Below are positions 7,495-22,408 of a DNA stretch of 34,258 nt, piece by piece. The stretch is from an uncultured Methanosarcinales archaeon (lineage in GTDB: Archaea; Nanobdellota; Nanobdellia; Woesearchaeales; CG1-02-33-12). The notes under the pieces are model-generated. The model was not told where the DNA came from and searched no databases. It was given only the letters and a program-made list of their open reading frames with translations. The DNA lies in the NCBI GenBank assembly GCA_964403775.1, contig CAYOHL010000003.1, forward strand, positions 1 to 34,258, in the 5' to 3' direction. Numbering within the stretch: the first letter of the stretch is position 1; each line of letters starts with the position of its first letter. The position numbers and the translations under genes were made by a program.

Positions 7495-8586
7495 TCAGAC
7501 AATCTCTGTTTTATAGATTTCAGCAAAAGTTAAAAACAGCGATAGTATCAAAGGGCCTACAACAATTCCTATTATTCCAAACATAGCCAACCCGCCCAAT
7601 ATTCCCAAGAGTATTATTGTAGGATGAATCCTTGCCCTATCGCCTATTATTTTGGGCCTTATCAAATTGTCAATTGTTGAGATCACAATAAAGCCATAAG
7701 CAAGAAGGCCTATGCCTGCAATAGTTGCAGAAATATTATCTGATGTTAAACCAATAATGAGCTTAGATGCTCCAAGAGGGAACCATACCCATGGAGCTCC
7801 TATAAAAGGTATCATACAGGCAATTATCATAATAAGGCCCCATATAAGGGGGGATTCAATGCTAAATATATACAAGCCTAATGTACCAACCATGCCCTGG
7901 ATCAATGCTGTCATAAAGTGTCCGTATATAACAGCACGTGTAACACTGCCAAATTTTTTCACTATTTTGTTTTGGTAATGGCTTTTTAATGGTATAATAA
8001 CCTTTATCTTTTTAAGCATTAATTCTCCGTCTCTTAACATAAAAAAAGTTAAAAATACCATAACAAAAAAGCTGAGTATCCTTCTTGGTATTGTAAATGC
8101 AAAATTTGATAACAAACTTATTATGGTGTTTGTAATATTGTCAAGGGAAGAGTATATTTGTGGTTTCTTTGCTGTACTAACCAAGAAGGAGTTTAGCTTA
8201 TACAAAATATTGGAGTCAGATTCTGCCCCAATTATATCCCCCTCTGCAATCCTCTGCTTTGAATTAGCATAAACAGTTATTACTTCCCTTGTAAGTGAGT
8301 TTGCAACAAACAAAATAGGGGTGATTATTAAAATTATTATGAAAACTGTTACTATGCCCGCAGAAAGATTTTTTCTATTGGTTTTTTTATTAATCCATCT
8401 GTATAAAGGGTAGAATATATATGAAACTATAGTGCTGGTCAATATTGCAATTATAAACGGCCTGATAATCAGGAAAACCAGAAAAATAGCTATAAGAAAG
8501 AACAGCAGTATAAAATATTTTGAAAATTCCTCTTTTATTCTTCTGATATTATCAACCTCTTTAACTATTGCGAACGTAGTGAGCAA
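7495..8586 (-). CDS. AI-2E family transporter (PerM/UPF0118); true start uncertain
   Basis: Multi-TM; YPLY, IPFIGA, IDNLIRPKIIG, HP.IILLGILGG..FG..G..VGP motifs. Confidence 0.9.
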   Translation of the reverse strand: MLTTFAIVKEVDNIRRIKEEFSKYFILLFFLIAIFLVFLIIRPFIIAILTSTIVSYIFYPLYRWINKKTNRKNLSAGIVTVFIIILIITPILFVANSLTREVITVYANSKQRIAEGDIIGAESDSNILYKLNSFLVSTAKKPQIYSSLDNITNTIISLLSNFAFTIPRRILSFFVMVFLTFFMLRDGELMLKKIKVIIPLKSHYQNKIVKKFGSVTRAVIYGHFMTALIQGMVGTLGLYIFSIESPLIWGLIMIIACMIPFIGAPWVWFPLGASKLIIGLTSDNISATIAGIGLLAYGFIVISTIDNLIRPKIIGDRARIHPTIILLGILGGLAMFGIIGIVVGPLILSLFLTFAEIYKTEIV

Positions 8587-8587
8587 C

Positions 8588-8796
8588 TGGGCCTGCCCGG
8601 ACTTTCATAACCCTTGCGAGCGTTAGCGAGCGCGAGGGACTTCAATTGCAGGGCAATTGAATGTCGCTCTTTGCGTATCAAATGAGCGTAACCATTTGCG
8701 TGCCAGCTTAGCAAAGAAGCTGTTTTGAACCGGGGATATTCACCATTTTGATTTAAAATCGTCAAGGTGACATCATAGCCGCTAGATCACAGGCCC
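8588..8796 (-). tRNA. trnV: tRNA-Val(GAC) with two introns: canonical 37/38 (8746-8759, 14 nt) and T-loop 59/60 (8602-8723, 122 nt)
   Basis: Acceptor GGGCCTG/CAGGCCC-A, anticodon stem TCACC/GGTGA with TT-GAC-G, T stem CCCGG/CCGGG; BHB central helices TTGA/TCAA and TTCA/TGAA; splicing restores T loop TTCAAAT. Confidence 0.88.
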
Positions 8797-8848
8797 AACT
8801 AAAAAATATAAGATTAGAATTGATATTTAAATGTTTTGTAAAAAACCG

Positions 8849-8950
8849 AGCGAGAGTTGAACACTGCGCAGATTTTGGCCCAAAATTTGATAAAATGCAG
8901 GCGACATTCAGCTATCGCTGAAGTCCCCTAAAAAGCCCCGAGCGAGAGTT
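8849..8950. repeat. 102-bp direct repeat, left copy (att-like; contains tRNA-Thr 3' fragments)
   Basis: Identical to 13263-13364 by direct comparison. Confidence 0.95.
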
Positions 8951-8982
8951 ATAAAAAAGGTAGGAAATAAGGGAATATTTAT

Positions 8983-9144
8983 ATGATTATTTATGTGACG
9001 GGAACTATAATGTTTTTAGCTGGTGCACTTGTTATAGTGTTTATTAAATCAAAAAAGGTTTTGACTAAACAAGAGGGAATTTATCTAATATTATTCTACA
9101 TATTTTCATTAGTTGTAGAATTTGTTATCAATAAGGTGTTCTAG
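8983..9144 (+). pseudogene. C-terminal remnant of a Na+/Ca2+ antiporter (YrbG-like)
   Basis: Own translation MIIYVTGTIMFLAGALVIVFIKSKKVLTKQEGIYLILFYIFSLVVEFVINKVF*; the LTKxEG..L..FY pattern matches the last helices of this family. Confidence 0.55.
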
Positions 9145-9229
9145 AAAAAATATACTTAGATTTACACGCATCAGTTTTTAGCTATCTTTAGCCGTCTTCA
9201 CAGAATTCCTCTCATATTGTTTAAAATCA

Positions 9230-9424
9230 TAAAAATCCACAGAAAACTCCTACCAGCATCTAAAGATGCTGGTTTGACGGAGTTTTCTTTTGACAGTGGA
9301 TTTTTAGGACACAAGGAAAACATAGTTTTCCGGTGTGCCAAAAATGCAAAGCATTTTTGAGCATGCCAGAAATGCTCATCCTCATACTGAAGTATGAGGT
9401 TTTCGCAAGCATTTCTGTGCATAA
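9230..9424. repeat. Array of four nested hairpins (REP/MITE-like)
   Basis: TAAAAATCCAC/GTGGATTTTTA, AGAAAACTCC/GGAGTTTTCT, ACCAGCATC/GATGCTGGT, GGAAAAC/GTTTTCC, CAAAAATGC/GCATTTTTG, CAGAAATGCT/AGCATTTCTG; last unit also at 1-55. Confidence 0.85.
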
Positions 9425-9457
9425 GTAAAAGTTTGTCTTCAGCAGTAAGAAAATTTT

Positions 9458-9580
9458 GGCTAACATATGTGATTCACCGAAGCTGATTTTTCAGAGCTGG
9501 AGCAAATTGGGGCAACCCACAATTTGAGACCTCAAAAAATCAATTTGGAAGAAGTGAGGTGCAACCGAGCGTAGGTACAC
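9458..9580 (-). repeat. Long imperfect hairpin element ending in GTTAGCC (degenerate attC-like)
   Basis: TGATTTTT/AAAAATCA, CAAATTG/CAATTTG, GGG-CAA-CCC nested stems; side hairpin ACC-GAGCGTA-GGT; R'-like heptamer at 9458-9464. Confidence 0.4.
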
Positions 9581-9684
9581 AGCCTACTTGTTTCATAATG
9601 GGAGCAGATGATACACCTTCCATTGCAGTAGGAGCGTGTCTGGATTTCTATTGCTGACGGGAATTTCCTATGTTTGACTGGCAT
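9532..9684 (-). pseudogene. Truncated radical SAM protein (N-terminal CxxxCxxC only)
   Basis: Own translation MPVKHRKFPSAIEIQTRSYCNGRCIICSHYETSRL...; starts 10 nt after the upstream stop and runs into the hairpin element. Confidence 0.75.
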
Positions 9685-9693
9685 TTTTTGACA

Positions 9694-10596
9694 TCATTGA
9701 GATTTGAGTGTGCCCAGTATATATTCCTTAGCTTTTTTTAGTGACCCGTTAATATATAATGCTGGAACAGAGGCCACTAGGTTATCTAATGCAACTGCCC
9801 TTTTGGTAAAGAGATCCTCATTGTCAAATGATGGGTAATAAACAGGCCTCTCTGGAATCCAGAGGATGTTGGAAGCTCGGATATATGTTGATAGGGCTTC
9901 TGATAGAAGTATCTTGGCTTTCCGCGGCTTTATCTCATAGGAAGATAATTCTTTAGCAGATATGTCAATTTTGACAAGATATATCGCTGAGAGTGGTGGG
10001 TTAATGGTTGGGAATGGATTCGGGCTGCTAACCAAAACATAGTCATCATGATAAGGTGCTCCATTGAATGAATGATACTGAGCATTGACCTTCTTGATGA
10101 GAACCTCATTTGTTCCGCCGACAATTGTAGGTTGCTCTCCAGGCCGGCTTTGGATGACCGAGAGGTCTCCACTTAAAAGCTGGAATCCTGCGTGCTCGCA
10201 GAGGTCCAGTGCAATGGTGGTTTTGCCAGAGCCGCTTTCACCGAGAAAAAGTATCCCCTTATCTGAACCGGATACCGCAGAGGAATGAAGTATGTATCTG
10301 TCTGTCTGGTTAAGTAGAAGGTTGACGAATGGCAGGATTCCAATCATGAGGTTTTCCTTAGTAAATAAATCTTGTGCGAATGTAAGCTCTAGGCGAGATA
10401 TTCCTTTATCATCTATCTGGAGTATCACTCCTGGCTCTCCACTCCCGATGCTGATAATCCCGTCTATATGTCCTTCATAGTTTGGATGGTAAGAAAAGGA
10501 GGGTATGCTACAGCAACTTCCTTGGCTACCAAGGAGGTGGCCAGATTCTAACCCCTCTACTTTTAAGGTAAGGTCAAGTACTTGTATGGCTTGCAT
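9694..10596 (-). CDS. HPr kinase-like P-loop protein
   Basis: LHSSAV..GILFLGESGSGKTT..LLSGD arrangement typical of the HprK/PEPCK-like fold. Confidence 0.7.
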   Translation of the reverse strand: MQAIQVLDLTLKVEGLESGHLLGSQGSCCSIPSFSYHPNYEGHIDGIISIGSGEPGVILQIDDKGISRLELTFAQDLFTKENLMIGILPFVNLLLNQTDRYILHSSAVSGSDKGILFLGESGSGKTTIALDLCEHAGFQLLSGDLSVIQSRPGEQPTIVGGTNEVLIKKVNAQYHSFNGAPYHDDYVLVSSPNPFPTINPPLSAIYLVKIDISAKELSSYEIKPRKAKILLSEALSTYIRASNILWIPERPVYYPSFDNEDLFTKRAVALDNLVASVPALYINGSLKKAKEYILGTLKSQ

Positions 10597-10647
10597 GTGC
10601 CTTAGATATAAGAAGGATTATATAAATGTTATTATTATTTAGTGACT

Positions 10648-11208
10648 CTATTTTAGGGTTCTATTTGCTTTAAGCTTACCGGGGGAGAATATGTACTCGT
10701 AGAACTCTATTATCCTGGCAACCCTATCCATATTTCCCAAGACAGGATCCCTTATGATTACTGGTTCTCTCTTACAGGCCATCACATCAGAGATATCTTT
10801 TTTCATATACACATATTTCGGCCTCCATAAGAACCTTAAACCTGACAAGTGGTTGAGCAGGCGAATAAATGTAGGCTCGCTGTATGAGTATGTATATGCC
10901 AAGGTAGACCAGAAATTCCTGTCAAACACTACCTTTCTTATTAAGGGATTCTTGGCAGATTCTATTGCCAGGTACTCATATGCTATATTCAAGGACAGCA
11001 TATTCAACTGGCGGGTATAAGAGAATTTTCCGGGGTTAATCCTTATCTCGCTGATCACAATATTGTTGGGTTTAAGAAAGTGGTTCGAGATGTATGTTGT
11101 CTTGCCAGAGCCGGATATTCCCTCGAGAACAATAACTTTCGGATTTATTGGGAGAAGAATGTAATTGGAGAGGAATTGATCCAGCGCCTTCTTTGTTTTT
11201 TGCTCCAT
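10648..11208 (-). CDS. Thymidylate/deoxynucleoside kinase-like protein (likely start 11208 rather than 11277)
   Basis: VIVLEGISGSGKTT P-loop and VVFDRNFWSTLAY motif. Confidence 0.7.
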   Translation of the reverse strand: MEQKTKKALDQFLSNYILLPINPKVIVLEGISGSGKTTYISNHFLKPNNIVISEIRINPGKFSYTRQLNMLSLNIAYEYLAIESAKNPLIRKVVFDRNFWSTLAYTYSYSEPTFIRLLNHLSGLRFLWRPKYVYMKKDISDVMACKREPVIIRDPVLGNMDRVARIIEFYEYIFSPGKLKANRTLK

Positions 11209-11260
11209 TGTGCTTACTTTGAGAGATAAGTTTATATATTTTATCAAATAATCATCCATC

Positions 11261-11713
11261 ATGATCGATAAATACATTGTCAGGCCTTGCGTGGCAATAT
11301 TCAGGGAAAAAGAGATCCTGCTTGTGAGAAGCGTTTACAAAGGCGAAGAATTCTATGTGCTCCCTGGAGGGAAGCTGGAGGTAGGAGAGACCCTCGCTGA
11401 GTGCGCGGTCAGGGAGGTTCTTGAGGAGACACACCTAAAGGTGGAGATAGAGAAACTATTGTATCTGAGGGACTTTATAAATGAGGAGGACCATGTTGTT
11501 GATGTGTTCTTCTTGGCAAAGCTGAAGAGAAAGGAGGCACCCATAAATAGATTTAATCAATCCTTTAATGATACGGTCAAGTTTGTGGAGTTCCGTCCGC
11601 TGGCAGATCTTGGCAAACTTAAGTTTTATCCAAAGTTCTTGAGGAAGAGACTGGTGGAGGATTTCAATACTGGATTCAGAAACTGTCCGGCTTATATAGG
11701 TAAGATAGACTGA
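11261..11713 (+). CDS. NUDIX hydrolase
   Basis: Nudix box GGKLEVGETLAECAVREVLEETHL. Confidence 0.93.
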   Translation: MIDKYIVRPCVAIFREKEILLVRSVYKGEEFYVLPGGKLEVGETLAECAVREVLEETHLKVEIEKLLYLRDFINEEDHVVDVFFLAKLKRKEAPINRFNQSFNDTVKFVEFRPLADLGKLKFYPKFLRKRLVEDFNTGFRNCPAYIGKID

Positions 11714-11723
11714 AACTAGGAGT

Positions 11724-13097
11724 CTATTTTCTCATAGGTGTTTTTCCTTTCACAATCTGGGTTTTGAACAGTTTTGAATAGGCACTAAGTACCAGGGCTC
11801 TGTATGCTGAGAGGCCGTGAAGGAAATAGAAAGGAATACTTCCAATCAGCAGTTTTGGGAGCAGCCGATACCTATCTGCTGATGGAAAATCTCTTCTGAC
11901 TGATATGATACCAAAAAAGTTCACTGCGGTAAGATAGGTTATCATACTTATGACCATAAGGAGTAAGAGATATATATTTTGCTGGACTGCTGTCAGGACA
12001 AACCCTACTACCATCAGACTAGGTCCGACTATCCAGCGCACAGCATGACTAAATAGCTTGCTGCTGAGTACAAAAAGCCTTAGCCTATTCAGAGACCTCC
12101 ATTTTTGGACAATCTTGCGATAATATTGGAAGGATTGGAGAGGACCGAAGAACCAATTGGATTTCTGTAAGTAGAGGCCTCTTAAAGAATCAGGCGATTC
12201 GCAGCGGTCAAAAAATGGTATAGGAATAATTCTTACCCAAAGATAGCTCAGCCCTAGCCCAAATATGGCATCTTCATTATGTGTATCCTCCATAAATCCG
12301 CCAAGCTTGTGAAATATCTTTTCTGTGTAGACGAGACCATGGCCAATGCAGTAATTAAGTGGGTAAAGTATCCCTTTTAATGAAGGGTTGTTTCGCAGAG
12401 CTGAGAATTGGTCCAGGGCATGGGGGATCTCAAAGCCGATACTCCATCTGTTCTGCCAGGCTGTTGCACTGGCGAGCACGGCCCCTCTAAGACCCGGTGA
12501 GATAGTCTCAAGGTTTTTTGTGTAGTCCCCATATTGCTGGAAAACTTGTGCGCTAGGCGAGTTTTTGAGGTAACCGAGAATCCACCTAAAGGTATTTGGG
12601 TCGGGCCTAGAGTCGGCGTTGTATACTGCAAAGAGGGTTCCTTTGGGCTGCTTTTGCTTGAGTATCTCCCTCATGGCGTAGTTGAGTTGGAAGGACATTT
12701 TTCTTCCTGGCCCTGAATAATGATATAATTTTATACAGGAATATTTCCTGCACAGCTTCTTGGCTAGATCAATAGTATTATTTTTCTTGGAGATTGAGTA
12801 CTCTGCTTCTGTTGTGATTATGCATATCTTGAGATTCCGAAATTTAGAATAAGTATGGACAAAGTAATTTACAGTTGCCTGGAGCCTGGTTATCTCATCT
12901 AAGGCAGGTATGAGGATATAGATTCTCCTTGCAAGGTCATTTGCAGATAATGATAAGACAGGAGTGCTGGTTTTCAACCAGCGTCTTGCCCGGAGTATCT
13001 GGACAAACCAGAAGATTGAAAGAATGAAGAATAGGGCAATAATCGCATAGTTTGACCATAATACCCATGGGGTTAGTTGATGGACAAGGGGGCTCAT
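11724..13097 (-). CDS. Membrane GT2 glycosyltransferase (cellulose synthase-like motifs)
   Basis: ILIPALDE, K..QLNYA, YNADSRP, EDAIFG, QKSNW (QxxRW variant); N- and C-terminal TM helices. Confidence 0.85.
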   Translation of the reverse strand: MSPLVHQLTPWVLWSNYAIIALFFILSIFWFVQILRARRWLKTSTPVLSLSANDLARRIYILIPALDEITRLQATVNYFVHTYSKFRNLKICIITTEAEYSISKKNNTIDLAKKLCRKYSCIKLYHYSGPGRKMSFQLNYAMREILKQKQPKGTLFAVYNADSRPDPNTFRWILGYLKNSPSAQVFQQYGDYTKNLETISPGLRGAVLASATAWQNRWSIGFEIPHALDQFSALRNNPSLKGILYPLNYCIGHGLVYTEKIFHKLGGFMEDTHNEDAIFGLGLSYLWVRIIPIPFFDRCESPDSLRGLYLQKSNWFFGPLQSFQYYRKIVQKWRSLNRLRLFVLSSKLFSHAVRWIVGPSLMVVGFVLTAVQQNIYLLLLMVISMITYLTAVNFFGIISVRRDFPSADRYRLLPKLLIGSIPFYFLHGLSAYRALVLSAYSKLFKTQIVKGKTPMRK

Positions 13098-13262
13098 AGG
13101 ATAGTCATGGAAGCCATAGTTAATAAGCTTTTCCCATCATCATTAATTAGTAATTTAAAAGAGATATTTACAAGAAATTCTAATAATATATTACAACAAA
13201 ACTAAAAGTTTAGTCAAGAATTCTAATAATCCCTTGGAACCTACTTTTTTAGTTAAGCCCCT

Positions 13263-13364
13263 AGCGAGAGTTGAACACTGCGCAGATTTTGGCCCAAAAT
13301 TTGATAAAATGCAGGCGACATTCAGCTATCGCTGAAGTCCCCTAAAAAGCCCCGAGCGAGAGTT
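13263..13364. repeat. 102-bp direct repeat, right copy, overlapping the tRNA-Thr 3' end
   Basis: Identical to 8849-8950. Confidence 0.95.
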
Positions 13365-13420
13365 GAACTCGCGACCTCCACCTTACCAAGGTGGCGCTAT
13401 AGCCACTAAGCCACCGGGGC
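13348..13420 (-). tRNA. trnT: tRNA-Thr(GGT), intronless
   Basis: GCCCCGG/TCGGGGC-T acceptor, CCACC-TT-GGT-AA-GGTGG anticodon arm, GCGAG-TTCAACT-CTCGC T arm. Confidence 0.96.
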
Positions 13421-15401: not shown

Positions 15402-17246
15402 TCAGTAATTAACCAATATTTCCACATCCTTGCCAAAGATATTTTTCATGTCTTCAAATATTGGCTCTTTTATAAAGACCTTTGACAGAGGCTCTATCTT
15501 TGATAGCTCTTTCTCAAGATCCTCAAAAGAGCTCTTGGTTATTTTTCCAAGTCCGCCATTAGGCAGTATTTCTGCCTTGCTAATCCTTTTTTCCTCCTGG
15601 TCAATGTCATGTATGATATAAGCATTTTTTCCAAGCAAAAGAACCTCCCCATACTTGTCTCCGTATTTTACTCTTATCTTTGTCCTTTCTATATCCATGC
15701 CTCTTTTTCTTTGTATATGCTCTACCATGAACCTAACAAATTCCTGAGAGCTTTTTTTAACTTTTTCAACCTCTGCCTTTGTTAATTTTTTCTCATCATA
15801 GTCTTTTTTTGCCTTCATTATGTCCTTTAATGTTCTTAAGAATTTTGCAGGTATTTTCCCATGGCTTATTATCTCCTTTTCAAATATGCTGACTATCTCT
15901 GTGTCACTAGCCCTCTCTATTCCCTCAAGCCTTAAAACATCTCTTATAACTGTAACAACAGTATCATAAACATGAAGCATTGACTCCTTTTCTTTTATTT
16001 TCTCTATCTGGCTGAATAATTTTTTTACCCTTTTAAGATATTTCTCTGCATTTTCAAGCAAGACATCAACCTCTTTACCACCGAGTTCTTTGGTTGTTCC
16101 ATGCTCAAGCTTTTTTCTAACCTCTATGTTATTTTCGAGTATTTTTATGTATTCCTCCTCTAACATTTTCTCTTTTTTTACAAACAGCTGCCTCATTAAG
16201 TCAGGGGTTTCCTTTGGGGTTGGAGGCGGAACACCATAAAGCATCAAAGCAGCCTGGCTTGGAGTTAAAATAGCCCAGAATATATCTTCCATTCCCAGGT
16301 CCCTTATCTTAAATTTAACATGCTTCAGCATCTGCTCCCCGCTGCTCATATACATATCAATTGCCTCTGCAGACGGCTTTATCTTGCCCATCTTCAACAA
16401 TTGCTTCCATGGCATAAATATCCCCCTGTCATAGAATGGAACCCCATCCCTCAGGAAAGTGAATATTATCGGATTGGCCTCCTTTATGTTGTCCCAGAAG
16501 TCTGTAAGTATATACACCTGGATATTCAGCTTGTTTTTAATTCCTGTAATTTCACCGGCTTCCATTCCCATTGTTATGATTATTGCCCTTAACTTATCTT
16601 TCAGTTCTGCCCTTGTCATCTTTTTGACGTCAGTGTCATCAACTACAATAAACACATCAATATCTGATTCAGATGTTGCCCTTCCCTGTACCAAAGAGCC
16701 TGCTAAAACATAGCTCACAATATATTTCTCAAACTTTTTAAGAACCATTGACTTATGGACCTCAGCTATCTTTACTGCAGAAAGCATTCCTGTATCATAA
16801 ACCGGGGCAGACAGCGCTATCATCTCCAGTATCTCATATTTACCGTCATAGCAGCTCTGCCATAGCTCAGAAAGGATAATTGTTTGGGGTGCAAGGTTTT
16901 TATCAACCTCTTTTGCCATTTTTTCTATAATGGATGACAGTTTTGTCTTAAGCTCATCCTTTGACATTCTCTTGCTGTCAGAATCATCAACCATAACAAG
17001 AATGTTTATCTGCTCACTGGGCTTTTCATCCTTTTCTGGCTTTTTTGGCGGCAGGAGTGCAATGCCAATTATGTAATTTTCAAACTTTTTCAGGGCTAGT
17101 TTCTTGAATTTATCAAGCCTTGATTTGATTGCTCTTAGTTTTTTCTGGGCCTCTTTCGGAAGCTTTGACTCAATTTCCTTGAACTGATTATTTTCTTTTG
17201 ATTTAATACCTTTATCATTATTTTTTTTAGTTTGTTTTTTAGCCAT
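15402..17246 (-). CDS. Nucleotidyltransferase-domain protein (tandem MNT-like domains plus helical HEPN-like region)
   Basis: GSLVQGRATSESDIDVFIVVDD Pol-beta motif with a degenerate N-terminal copy; AGGTGA RBS before ATG 17246. Confidence 0.75.
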   Translation of the reverse strand: MAKKQTKKNNDKGIKSKENNQFKEIESKLPKEAQKKLRAIKSRLDKFKKLALKKFENYIIGIALLPPKKPEKDEKPSEQINILVMVDDSDSKRMSKDELKTKLSSIIEKMAKEVDKNLAPQTIILSELWQSCYDGKYEILEMIALSAPVYDTGMLSAVKIAEVHKSMVLKKFEKYIVSYVLAGSLVQGRATSESDIDVFIVVDDTDVKKMTRAELKDKLRAIIITMGMEAGEITGIKNKLNIQVYILTDFWDNIKEANPIIFTFLRDGVPFYDRGIFMPWKQLLKMGKIKPSAEAIDMYMSSGEQMLKHVKFKIRDLGMEDIFWAILTPSQAALMLYGVPPPTPKETPDLMRQLFVKKEKMLEEEYIKILENNIEVRKKLEHGTTKELGGKEVDVLLENAEKYLKRVKKLFSQIEKIKEKESMLHVYDTVVTVIRDVLRLEGIERASDTEIVSIFEKEIISHGKIPAKFLRTLKDIMKAKKDYDEKKLTKAEVEKVKKSSQEFVRFMVEHIQRKRGMDIERTKIRVKYGDKYGEVLLLGKNAYIIHDIDQEEKRISKAEILPNGGLGKITKSSFEDLEKELSKIEPLSKVFIKEPIFEDMKNIFGKDVEILVNY

Positions 17247-17379
17247 AATCACTCACCTGATTATTTAATCATAAGATTAGCTAAAATAGGTTTATTATTA
17301 AGCATATATAAATCTTTTTAAAAAACTCAGGAGATTTTCCGGAGCATGCATAACTTAAATTAACCTTTCCCAAAGAAAA

Positions 17380-22180: not shown

Positions 22181-22408
22181 CGCCGGGACTGGGACTTTCA
22201 CCAATGGCTGCGAACGAAGTGAACTAAGGGGATTTGGATTTTAAGCCAAATCCTCTATGCGTGCCAGCTTAGCAAGAAGCTGTGCGTAACCATTTGTTTT
22301 GAACCCAGATATCCTTTCGGAAACTGGCTGTTTTGGGCAAAACCAAATCCTATAATTAAATTGCTCGCCGCTCAAGGCCAGCGCAATGCCAGATTATGCG
22401 ATCCCGGC
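22181..22408 (-). tRNA. trnS: tRNA-Ser(TGA) with two introns: canonical 37/38 (22330-22370, 41 nt) and T-loop 59/60 (22195-22297, 103 nt)
   Basis: GCCGGGA/TCCCGGC-G acceptor, CTGGC-CT-TGA-G..A-GCCAG, variable arm TCC-GAAA-GGA, T stem CTGGG/CCCAG; BHB helix TTCA/TGAA; splicing restores TTCAAAT. Confidence 0.88.

Follow-up and report, generated by a model that had tools for sequence, protein, structure and literature searches.

The window analysed here is a 34,258-nt stretch (positions 1 to 34,258 of contig CAYOHL010000003.1, assembly GCA_964403775.1) from an uncultured archaeon named as one of the Methanosarcinales and placed by GTDB in the Woesearchaeales. On its minus strand lie a tRNA-Val(GAC) gene (8588–8796) and an intact tRNA-Thr(GGU) gene (13348–13420, called by ARAGORN and Rfam), and both are accompanied by a small imperfect hairpin, which is our subject. 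The pattern GCGACATTCA-N(4,30)-TGAAGTCCC matches the window exactly three times, at 8636–8667 on the minus strand and at 8901–8927 and 13315–13341 on the plus strand, and none of 100 dinucleotide-preserving shuffles contained any match. The initial annotation, made from the letters alone, had placed the hairpin at these three positions and on both strands, and the placement holds. The two plus-strand copies are identical because both lie within a 117-nt direct repeat, and they therefore count as one independent event.

The intron copy and the copy beside tRNA-Thr share one fold, in which two outer pairs are followed by a 1×1 mismatch, three pairs, a one-base bulge, and a stem with its loop. 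The folding energies of the two versions are −15.3 and −14.0 kcal/mol (z = −6.3 and −4.6). Common arms, bulge and mismatch included, around an apex that differs but stays paired had also been described, and the folds agree: the apex is ATTGC-CCT-GCAAT in one version and GC-TATC-GC in the other. With its two outer pairs the intron copy spans 8634–8669 (minus strand) and scores 62.5 bits against R1, the covariance model described below. No Rfam family fits the region (top matches E = 2.6 and 6.9). A K-turn, C/D box, H/ACA element, hammerhead and T-arm mimic were each considered and dropped by eye, since the required GA pairs or boxes are absent and only CAUU...AAG is fixed.

Both ARAGORN and Rfam overlook tRNA-Val(GAC) unless its T-loop intron is excised. 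Once 8602–8723 is removed, ARAGORN calls the joined exons as a cloverleaf, tRNA-Val(gac), i(38,14), so that the gene has a 14-nt canonical intron as well as the 122-nt T-loop (59/60) intron. The latter (8602–8723, minus strand) consists of a box5 hairpin, an hp1 hairpin with a TTGATA linker, the signature hairpin, a GCTCGC box and a ...TGAAAG end. T-loop TTCA and intron TGAA pair at four of four positions, and this 4-bp helix, with junction bulges AA|A and AG|T (judged by eye), gives the geometry of a bulge-helix-bulge splice site. The same arrangement recurs among relatives, where T54–A57 pairs with the four intron letters that precede the last two. All four pairs are present in 36 of 41 rows, and the compensatory forms TTCA/TGAA (18 rows) and TTCG/CGAA (10 rows) are both seen within orthologous tRNA-Val(GAC). 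The genome that holds the window, labelled G000 (882,920 bases in 100 contigs, 36% G+C, 92% complete), encodes EndA (PF01974 on contig C83, 98.5 bits) and RtcB (PF01139 on C1, 524 bits).

We searched for further T-loop introns by excising a candidate insert after T-loop position 59 and confirming the result with ARAGORN. G000 gave 16 candidates, 12 of them introns of this family (83–173 nt); the remaining four are one 18-nt intron, two doubtful calls and one alternative reading of a locus. Many more were found in relatives. The introns string their hairpins like beads: first CAGCTT..AAGCTG, then in some introns CAAATGG..CATTTG with its GATAYGCA linker, next a middle hairpin, and finally the GCTCGC box and the ...TGAAAG end. 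The middle place is taken by the signature module or by another hairpin, of which there are at least three kinds; one of these, GCGGGCATTGAA..TTCAAGCCCAC, has, by eye, a matching mismatch-and-bulge layout. Elsewhere in the window, at 22181–22408 (minus strand), lies a second tRNA gene that neither ARAGORN nor Rfam sees; it is called Ser(tga) once spliced, a putative isotype. Two introns interrupt this gene, a canonical one of 41 nt and one of 103 nt in the T-loop; the latter belongs to the same bead family and carries another middle hairpin (GAGGATTTGGC..).

The hairpins beside tRNA-Thr do not sit in a tRNA intron; they are inverted and lie 3′ of the intact gene. Each belongs to a 67-nt element on the plus strand (8863–8929 and 13277–13343) made up of an hp1-like hairpin, TTGATA and the signature hairpin, and the left copy scores 41 bits with R1. 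The Thr-side copy has the upstream hairpin (here ATTTTGG/CCAAAAT) and the linker in common with the intron core, and it is a whole diverged element, more than a hairpin alone. From end to end it is homologous to L028, an element next to tRNA-Thr(CGU) in another genus. The two elements lie in 117-nt direct repeats at 8834–8950 and 13248–13364, which are 95% identical and spaced 4414 nt apart.

Read along the minus strand from tRNA-Thr, the window presents the intact tRNA 3′ end with TTTT, the inverted element (13277–13343), a second copy of tRNA-Thr positions 53–73 with one mismatch (13256–13276) and an island of about 4.3 kb (8951–13255). Past the island come a third copy of the 3′ end with its TTTT trailer, which forms the left island border (8930–8950, minus strand), the element again (8863–8929), and the original 3′ end (8846–8862, minus strand), 4 nt short and still joined to the ancestral Thr-Val spacer (8797–8845) that leads to tRNA-Val. 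The original end was recognised by comparison with G002, G003 and G009, in which about 48 nt separate tRNA-Thr(GGU) from the tRNA-Val(GAC) behind it, without the element. The arrangement is that of an element inserted at tRNA-Thr with duplication of 21–25 nt, the tRNA being left whole. Inverted elements between 15–24-nt duplicates of the 3′ exon, some of which include the trailer, are also found at tRNA-Thr(CGU) of G012, tRNA-Thr(UGU) of G006, a tRNA-Leu of G038 and tRNA-Pro(GGG) of G065, where a 21-nt repeat begins at position 60. At tRNA-Thr(UGU) of G006 the module element is nested within the loop of a related GCGATTCC..GGAATCCC hairpin, and a related element also occupies the Thr(GGU)-Val spacer of that genome. 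In all, three tRNA-Thr isoacceptors have elements of the Thr type beside them.

The island has about six open reading frames (ORFs) in both directions; besides small ORFs and a hairpin-array repeat it encodes an HprK-like P-loop protein, a kinase-like protein, a NUDIX hydrolase and a GT2 glycosyltransferase. A Pfam search of five of its ORFs (74–457 aa; smaller ones such as 8983–9144 were left out) found no recombinase or integrase. In one metagenome run (X6) a single contig (2232 nt, depth 9) passes directly from 8848 to 13263, omitting exactly 4414 nt, with 102 shared letters; this island-less form retains one copy of the element, and contigs with the island are present alongside it. In the other three runs, contigs break at the 117-nt repeats. 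We interpret these forms as a polymorphism for the presence of the island, with the 117-nt units as its mediators. The link that had been drawn between the module and the island ends is borne out, as the bounding repeats contain the module. A second modular hairpin-array repeat, about 205 nt long with nested hairpins that include CCAGCATCTAAAGATGCTGG, lies within the island (9220–9430) and at positions 1–65 of the window. In G000 it is matched 28 times, in full or in part and mostly at contig ends, and its depth in four metagenomes is 190–390× versus 6–16× for its surroundings. Shorter copies of it are without the inner hairpins, so nesting into hairpin loops looks general for such repeats.

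The module is far more than a single local inverted duplication. The pattern GCGACATTCA-N(4,30)-TGAAGTCCC has nine exact matches in G000 versus none for the reversed control, and a looser pattern retrieved hairpin-forming copies from all genomes of the genus and some from distant families. R1 was built from 59 distinct aligned copies and searched against 101 related genomes at E ≤ 0.001. It matched 20 of them, with 16 copies in G000 and 23 in G065: all ten genomes of the genus (G000 included), both of the sister genus, not the one genome of the family's third genus, and 8 of 88 beyond the window's family, each from a different family of the order. When one genome per species was scanned, about 60 of the 116 matches listed were true hairpins, in records labelled Woesearchaeota/Nanoarchaeota and some labelled Methanosarcinales, Methanomicrobia or Thermococci (record labels as given); none of the bacterial matches listed folds. 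A viral origin was rejected because no true hairpin copy occurs among the IMG/VR matches listed (0 of 80 with a loose pattern; 0 of 40 with a tighter one, about 30 of the 40 being one conserved phage coding stretch).

Two of the genomes carry the module in settings of their own. The 23 matches in G065 lie within long composite repeats of many small hairpins, and a tRNA is called beside one of the 13 copies retrieved (L075–L087). In G028 (L407–L410) elements of about 95–130 nt with a variant hairpin are bracketed by a pair of GTTAAC hexamers. They lie immediately upstream of gene starts, in antisense to the genes, and three of these four copies end contigs.

Covariation across the family, which the initial annotation had proposed to model, is marked. 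In the 59-row alignment 97.4% of cells are paired and both sides change in 9 of 15 pairs. The covariation score is 0.351, versus 0.127 for shuffles (none of 500 reached 0.351) and at most 0.10 for slid partners. The outer pairs, which lie outside GCGAC/GTCCC and played no part in retrieval, covary as GT..AC, GA..TC, AG..CT, GG..CC and AT..AT. One of them is GC in 39 copies, AU in 16, GU in 2 and unpaired in 2 (n = 59); the other is AU in 25, GC in 17, UA in 16 and unpaired in 1. Between the helices lies a fixed core of G-C, a C.C mismatch, G-C, A-U, C-G and a bulged purine. In hits found only by the model the mismatch persists as a mismatch (C.C, rarely U.C or C.A) and the bulge is A or G. The core C-G pair is U.G in one copy (C8:19832) and U-A in G028, and a further sense-strand wobble, G.U, occurs in C28 and in GCGGC variants. 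A fixed asymmetric core between two free, covarying helices argues that the module is a folded single strand. This would be the usual look of a protein docking site, and the asymmetric core fits a folded strand of DNA or RNA alike.

We sorted 76 distinct instances by their surroundings. Twenty-seven are inside T-loop introns, all in the tRNA direction and none inverted, and one of the 27 lies between duplicate 3′ exons. Another nine are in the tRNA direction and at most 120 nt 3′ of a tRNA. Five are inverted at a tRNA 3′ end; two of these five were labelled 'antisense introns' by the classifier solely because a duplicate 3′ exon follows. One instance is the window's left repeat copy, one lies upstream of tRNA-Cys in contig C35, and 33 have no tRNA call, some of them being contig-end truncations or finder failures. 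Occurrence in both orientations, seen at first in the window, thus extends to the family, with copies in either direction relative to neighbouring genes.

Two sites far from any tRNA can be compared between filled and empty states. In the spacer between a HEPN-like gene and an MNT nucleotidyltransferase gene, G001 and G002 have a 99-nt element with an exact 17-bp target duplication, and in G003, G004 and G007 the element is absent and the 17-mer occurs a single time. These orthologous inserts differ in apex (ACTTCGT vs ATTGCAGAGCAAT), so apex swaps occur in place. The window itself has, at 15402–17252 (minus strand), a 616-aa ORF with nucleotidyltransferase (MNT-like) and HEPN domains, the same toxin-antitoxin-type pairing that hosts the insertion in relatives. 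Between rpl23 and rpl2 a 94-nt hairpin-bearing insert is whole in five genomes and broken by contig ends in a sixth (G002); in G000, G003 and G006 the site is empty and the genes are 1 nt apart. The insert (L038, G001:C31, 366–459) brings a new GAGG ribosome-binding site and an ATG that replaces GTG, and the 33 nt adjoining rpl2 are identical in five genomes.

Sites next to tRNAs change as well. The site 3′ of tRNA-Val(GAC) has five different versions in five genomes. In the window only the GCTCAC..GTTCGCAA box of the trailer element is left (8565–8587, minus strand), and four relatives have four different complete versions, with that of G006 inverted relative to those of G003, G004 and G009, an in-place inversion. 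At L048 one element is nested inside another hairpin. Target duplications vary in length from about 12 to 25 bp, and none of the four bounded elements has terminal inverted repeats (longest terminal run, 3 nt). When mismatched flanks were used as a control, recurring family boxes produced repeats of 11 nt or more in 78 of 400 trials, and only host-derived repeats were therefore counted as duplications. For the 33 instances without a tRNA, gene directions called from ORFs were noisy, and the two ORFs flanking L025 have no Pfam match. Four loci could be resolved by Pfam or by reading (HEPN/MNT, rpl23-rpl2, the NDK-GTPase spacer of G091 and the G028 copies), and at all four the module is antisense to the co-directional genes that flank it, a regularity that is suggestive only.

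On balance we favour, somewhat above even odds, the view that the hairpin marks, as a signature module, a family of small (~65–170 nt), non-coding, multi-hairpin mobile elements in Woesearchaeota-type archaea. The comparisons above show that such elements insert into DNA. Most insertions are at tRNA genes, in the part from the T-loop to the 3′ end, and some are between protein genes; 12–25 bp of target are duplicated, and terminal inverted repeats are absent. Copies at 59/60 in the tRNA direction end in ...TGAAAG, which pairs with T54–A57, so that the interrupted pre-tRNA can form a bulge-helix-bulge site, and they may persist as introns because they are spliced out. The Thr-associated subfamily inserted in the opposite direction, duplicating the last 21–25 nt of tRNA-Thr and leaving the tRNA whole, and recombination between two 117-nt units (3′ end, element, 3′ end) could then let an island enter or leave. 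The fixed core may be the docking site of a trans-acting protein that reads the folded single strand, and apex swaps may arise from exchange or nesting among copies.

Several points weigh against this account of a mobile family. The duplicate at rpl23-rpl2 is decayed, about 12 bp of the rpl2 start recognised by eye. No target duplication was detected at several tRNA-trailer copies or at any G065 copy, the boundaries of the latter being undefined. The T-loop introns likewise have no target duplication that we could find, so they may have arisen by another route than the flanked insertions; either a second, precise route or later loss of the proximal 3′-exon copy would account for this. The island-less form is a single assembled contig through a 102-nt repeat, possibly an assembly path, and weaker than a single read. 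Retrieval of the aligned copies demanded GYRRCATT...AAGTCCC and at least five stem pairs, which partly fixed the core letters and inner stem by construction, and the core was tested only by a few model-only hits and G028. Finally, no enzyme tied to the module was found among Y1_Tnp, Phage_integrase, RVT_1 and Cas1, the families searched in these fragmented and incomplete genomes.

A bolder extension, which we hold as a tentative and rather doubtful proposal, is that the T-loop introns were born from a transposon-like element and are the archaeal counterpart of eukaryotic introners. A hairpin-guided machine would make its cuts in the T-loop and close to the 3′ end of tRNA genes, and the tRNA would survive because the 3′ exon is duplicated. 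If the end of the element pairs with the T-loop, the host endonuclease could splice the 5′ exon to the downstream 3′ exon, and the element would have become an intron. Arrays of the kind seen at C85 and L076 would be intermediates. In G000, contigs C85 (100–400) and C9 (2555–2950) have, in tandem, 5′ exon, intron, 3′ exon, element, 3′ exon and decayed element. The T-loop at C85 is TCCGA, with a compensating CGGA at both element ends, and at C85 and L076 both 3′ exons are preceded by a pairing-competent ...CGGAA(A/G) end, such that splicing could go either way. A locus at which only the distal 3′-exon copy is functional was not found among the loci examined. We also considered whether intron 3′ ends keep a relic of a duplicated T-loop and dropped the idea, as xGGT precedes the pairing block in only 4 of about 37 ends (by eye).

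Among the alternatives to a mobile family the one that survives best, which we nevertheless consider unlikely, is purely RNA-level. The hairpin would then be part of the T-loop intron, serving as a folding scaffold, a site for a splicing-aid protein or a stable excised or circular RNA, and all other copies would be by-products of recombination among tRNA genes. The complete absence of inverted copies from the 27 intron instances speaks for it, as do the nine further instances 3′ of tRNAs that would be co-transcribed, the sense-strand wobbles of the core and the covariation of intron ends with the T-loop. The antisense placement at all four resolved loci may tentatively be added, as would be expected if messages did not tolerate the sense form of the RNA. 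Against it stand the clean insertions with target duplication far from any tRNA; recombination of tRNA genes cannot yield a 17-bp duplication of the HEPN-MNT junction. The module also remains intact where it is inverted, at four tRNA-Thr loci, and where it lies antisense in a copy that five genomes retain.

The initial annotation had taken the conserved asymmetries in both orientations to favour a DNA recognition structure over an RNA function. Half of this stands, since empty sites and target duplications show movement at the DNA level, and nesting, in-place inversion, copies between genes and the same asymmetric strand whatever the local direction of transcription point the same way. The other half, DNA rather than RNA, is not supported, given that T-loop copies are never inverted and that the T-loop covariation and the sense-strand wobbles favour RNA. 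The two sets of facts are compatible if the element moves as DNA, or via an RNA copy, and survives in a T-loop only in the spliceable direction.

We think it improbable that the hairpin is an integrase-driven attachment site, or an attC- or REP-like hairpin of a tyrosine recombinase or an HUH/RAYT enzyme, with the 117-nt repeats as attL and attR. Those repeats do include the tRNA 3′ end, as in archaeal integrative elements, the island is present or absent in the population, and a fixed bulge and mismatch under a variable apex are reminiscent of folded attC sites or IS200-type ends. G000 even has one Y1 (HUH) transposase gene (C74) and two tyrosine recombinase genes, but all three are on contigs with no module match. 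Co-occurrence of the hairpin with HUH/RAYT transposases, tyrosine recombinases or integron integrases, which had been proposed as a test, was not borne out. Y1 is present in 37 of the 101 genomes, whereas 7 of the 20 module-bearing ones, incomplete as they are, yielded none (G065, the richest with its 23 copies, G028, G003, G005, G006, G007 and G012). We rejected a RAYT/HUH link on these grounds and because the C74 Y1 gene is flanked by other hairpins. One copy of the element remains in the island-less form, so the element pre-dates the island, and the several island genes, which run in both directions and of which the five searched include no integrase or transposase, are unlike integron cassettes. 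Target duplications of 12–25 bp, the true ones at non-tRNA sites among them, do not fit the chemistries of HUH, tyrosine-recombinase or integron enzymes. Duplications of such variable length could result from the repair of staggered breaks around an inserted piece or from target-primed copying. Neither a reverse transcriptase (RVT_1) nor Cas1 was found in G000.

Equally hard to sustain is a host cis-element spread by duplication, a protein-binding, RNA-processing or stability signal serving its neighbours (tRNA 3′ processing, the rpl2 start), for which the nearly invariant rpl23-rpl2 copy and flank, the start signals it supplies to rpl2 and the recurrence at three tRNA-Thr isoacceptors might speak, because presence or absence varies among close relatives at all loci examined, the family is patchy across the order (8 of 88 genomes outside the window's family), and positions and directions relative to genes differ.

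Several known systems resemble the family in part. REP/BIME sequences with their RAYT enzymes, and the ends of IS200/IS605 elements, are short imperfect hairpins with fixed asymmetries and variable stems, present in high copy between genes and in both directions. Their hairpin loops serve as sites of insertion and nesting, insertion occurs without target duplication, and REP sequences have been domesticated in bacteria. The family described here is likewise short, asymmetric, variable in its stem, bidirectional and nested; unlike those hairpins, it does not co-occur with Y1/HUH, makes target duplications and is strongly tied to tRNA T-loops and splicing. As for the standard classes of mobile element, the family shares target duplication and empty sites with miniature inverted-repeat transposable elements and has no terminal inverted repeats. 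It shares variable-length duplications with short interspersed nuclear elements, no reverse transcriptase (RVT_1) being found in G000, the one genome searched for it. It shares direct repeats that include a tRNA 3′ end with integrative elements, with no integrase inside. No integrase and attI lie by an array of single-gene cassettes, as in an integron, and the recombinases are on other contigs. In eukaryotes, introner-like DNA transposons create spliceosomal introns.

Introners, and likewise IStrons (PMC4227781), are, like the elements proposed here, mobile elements that are harmless once removed from the transcript. Removal here would use a host protein endonuclease at a bulge-helix-bulge site, unlike the spliceosome or ribozyme of those systems; our element has no linked transposase, and the step from flanked insertion to intron is a proposal. 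Archaeal tRNA-targeting integrative elements and casposons (PMC6563490, PMC9939771) likewise target and duplicate the 3′ part of a tRNA and leave it whole, and differ in that our elements are about 67–100 nt, free of genes, without an associated Cas1 or integrase, and flanked by duplications of varying length. The 59/60 bulge-helix-bulge intron of ARMAN-2 pre-tRNA-Cys(GCA) is cut in vitro by the epsilon2 EndA of that organism (PMC3239211). The introns described here share its T-loop position, normal cloverleaf exons, a 4-bp helix between T54–57 and the intron 3′ end with short bulges, and the coding of EndA and RtcB in the genome. Unlike the 13-nt ARMAN-2 intron, they are 83–173 nt long and made of interchangeable hairpin beads, and the signature bead also occurs outside tRNAs, inverted and with target duplications. 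In the Thermoproteales, similar introns across tRNA species have been taken as a sign of recent spread, or intron 'transposition' (Fujishima et al. 2010, via PMC4033280 and PMC3239211). Similar sequences common to different tRNAs of one lineage are found here too; unlike that account, ours concerns DPANN/Woesearchaeota and includes plain DNA insertions, empty sites, 12–25-bp duplications and both directions. What was already known from these sources comprises 59/60 introns and families of similar introns spread among tRNAs (PMC4033280, PMC3239211). Within the titles, abstracts and cited passages searched we found no intron family whose module is also an insertion element with empty sites, long duplications, both directions and nesting.

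How archaeal tRNA introns reach their sites is a current question. The cited part of a 2026 preprint on Asgard tRNA introns states that 'how they arrive remains open' (10.64898/2026.10.13.758758), and older work, as quoted, inferred intron 'transposition' only from similarity among introns (PMC4033280). To this our analysis adds the evidence from empty sites and duplications, the covarying core, the reconstruction of the Thr-Val locus and the island polymorphism. The family also accounts for the many tRNA genes that standard finders overlook in these genomes, and for the breaks of their assemblies at hairpin repeats. A hairpin that fills many T-loop introns and is also caught as plain DNA insertions is a rare handle on the arrival of archaeal tRNA introns. 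It makes the question of their origin concrete: which protein would bind the core, whether it would bind DNA or RNA, and how a flanked insertion may become an intron.

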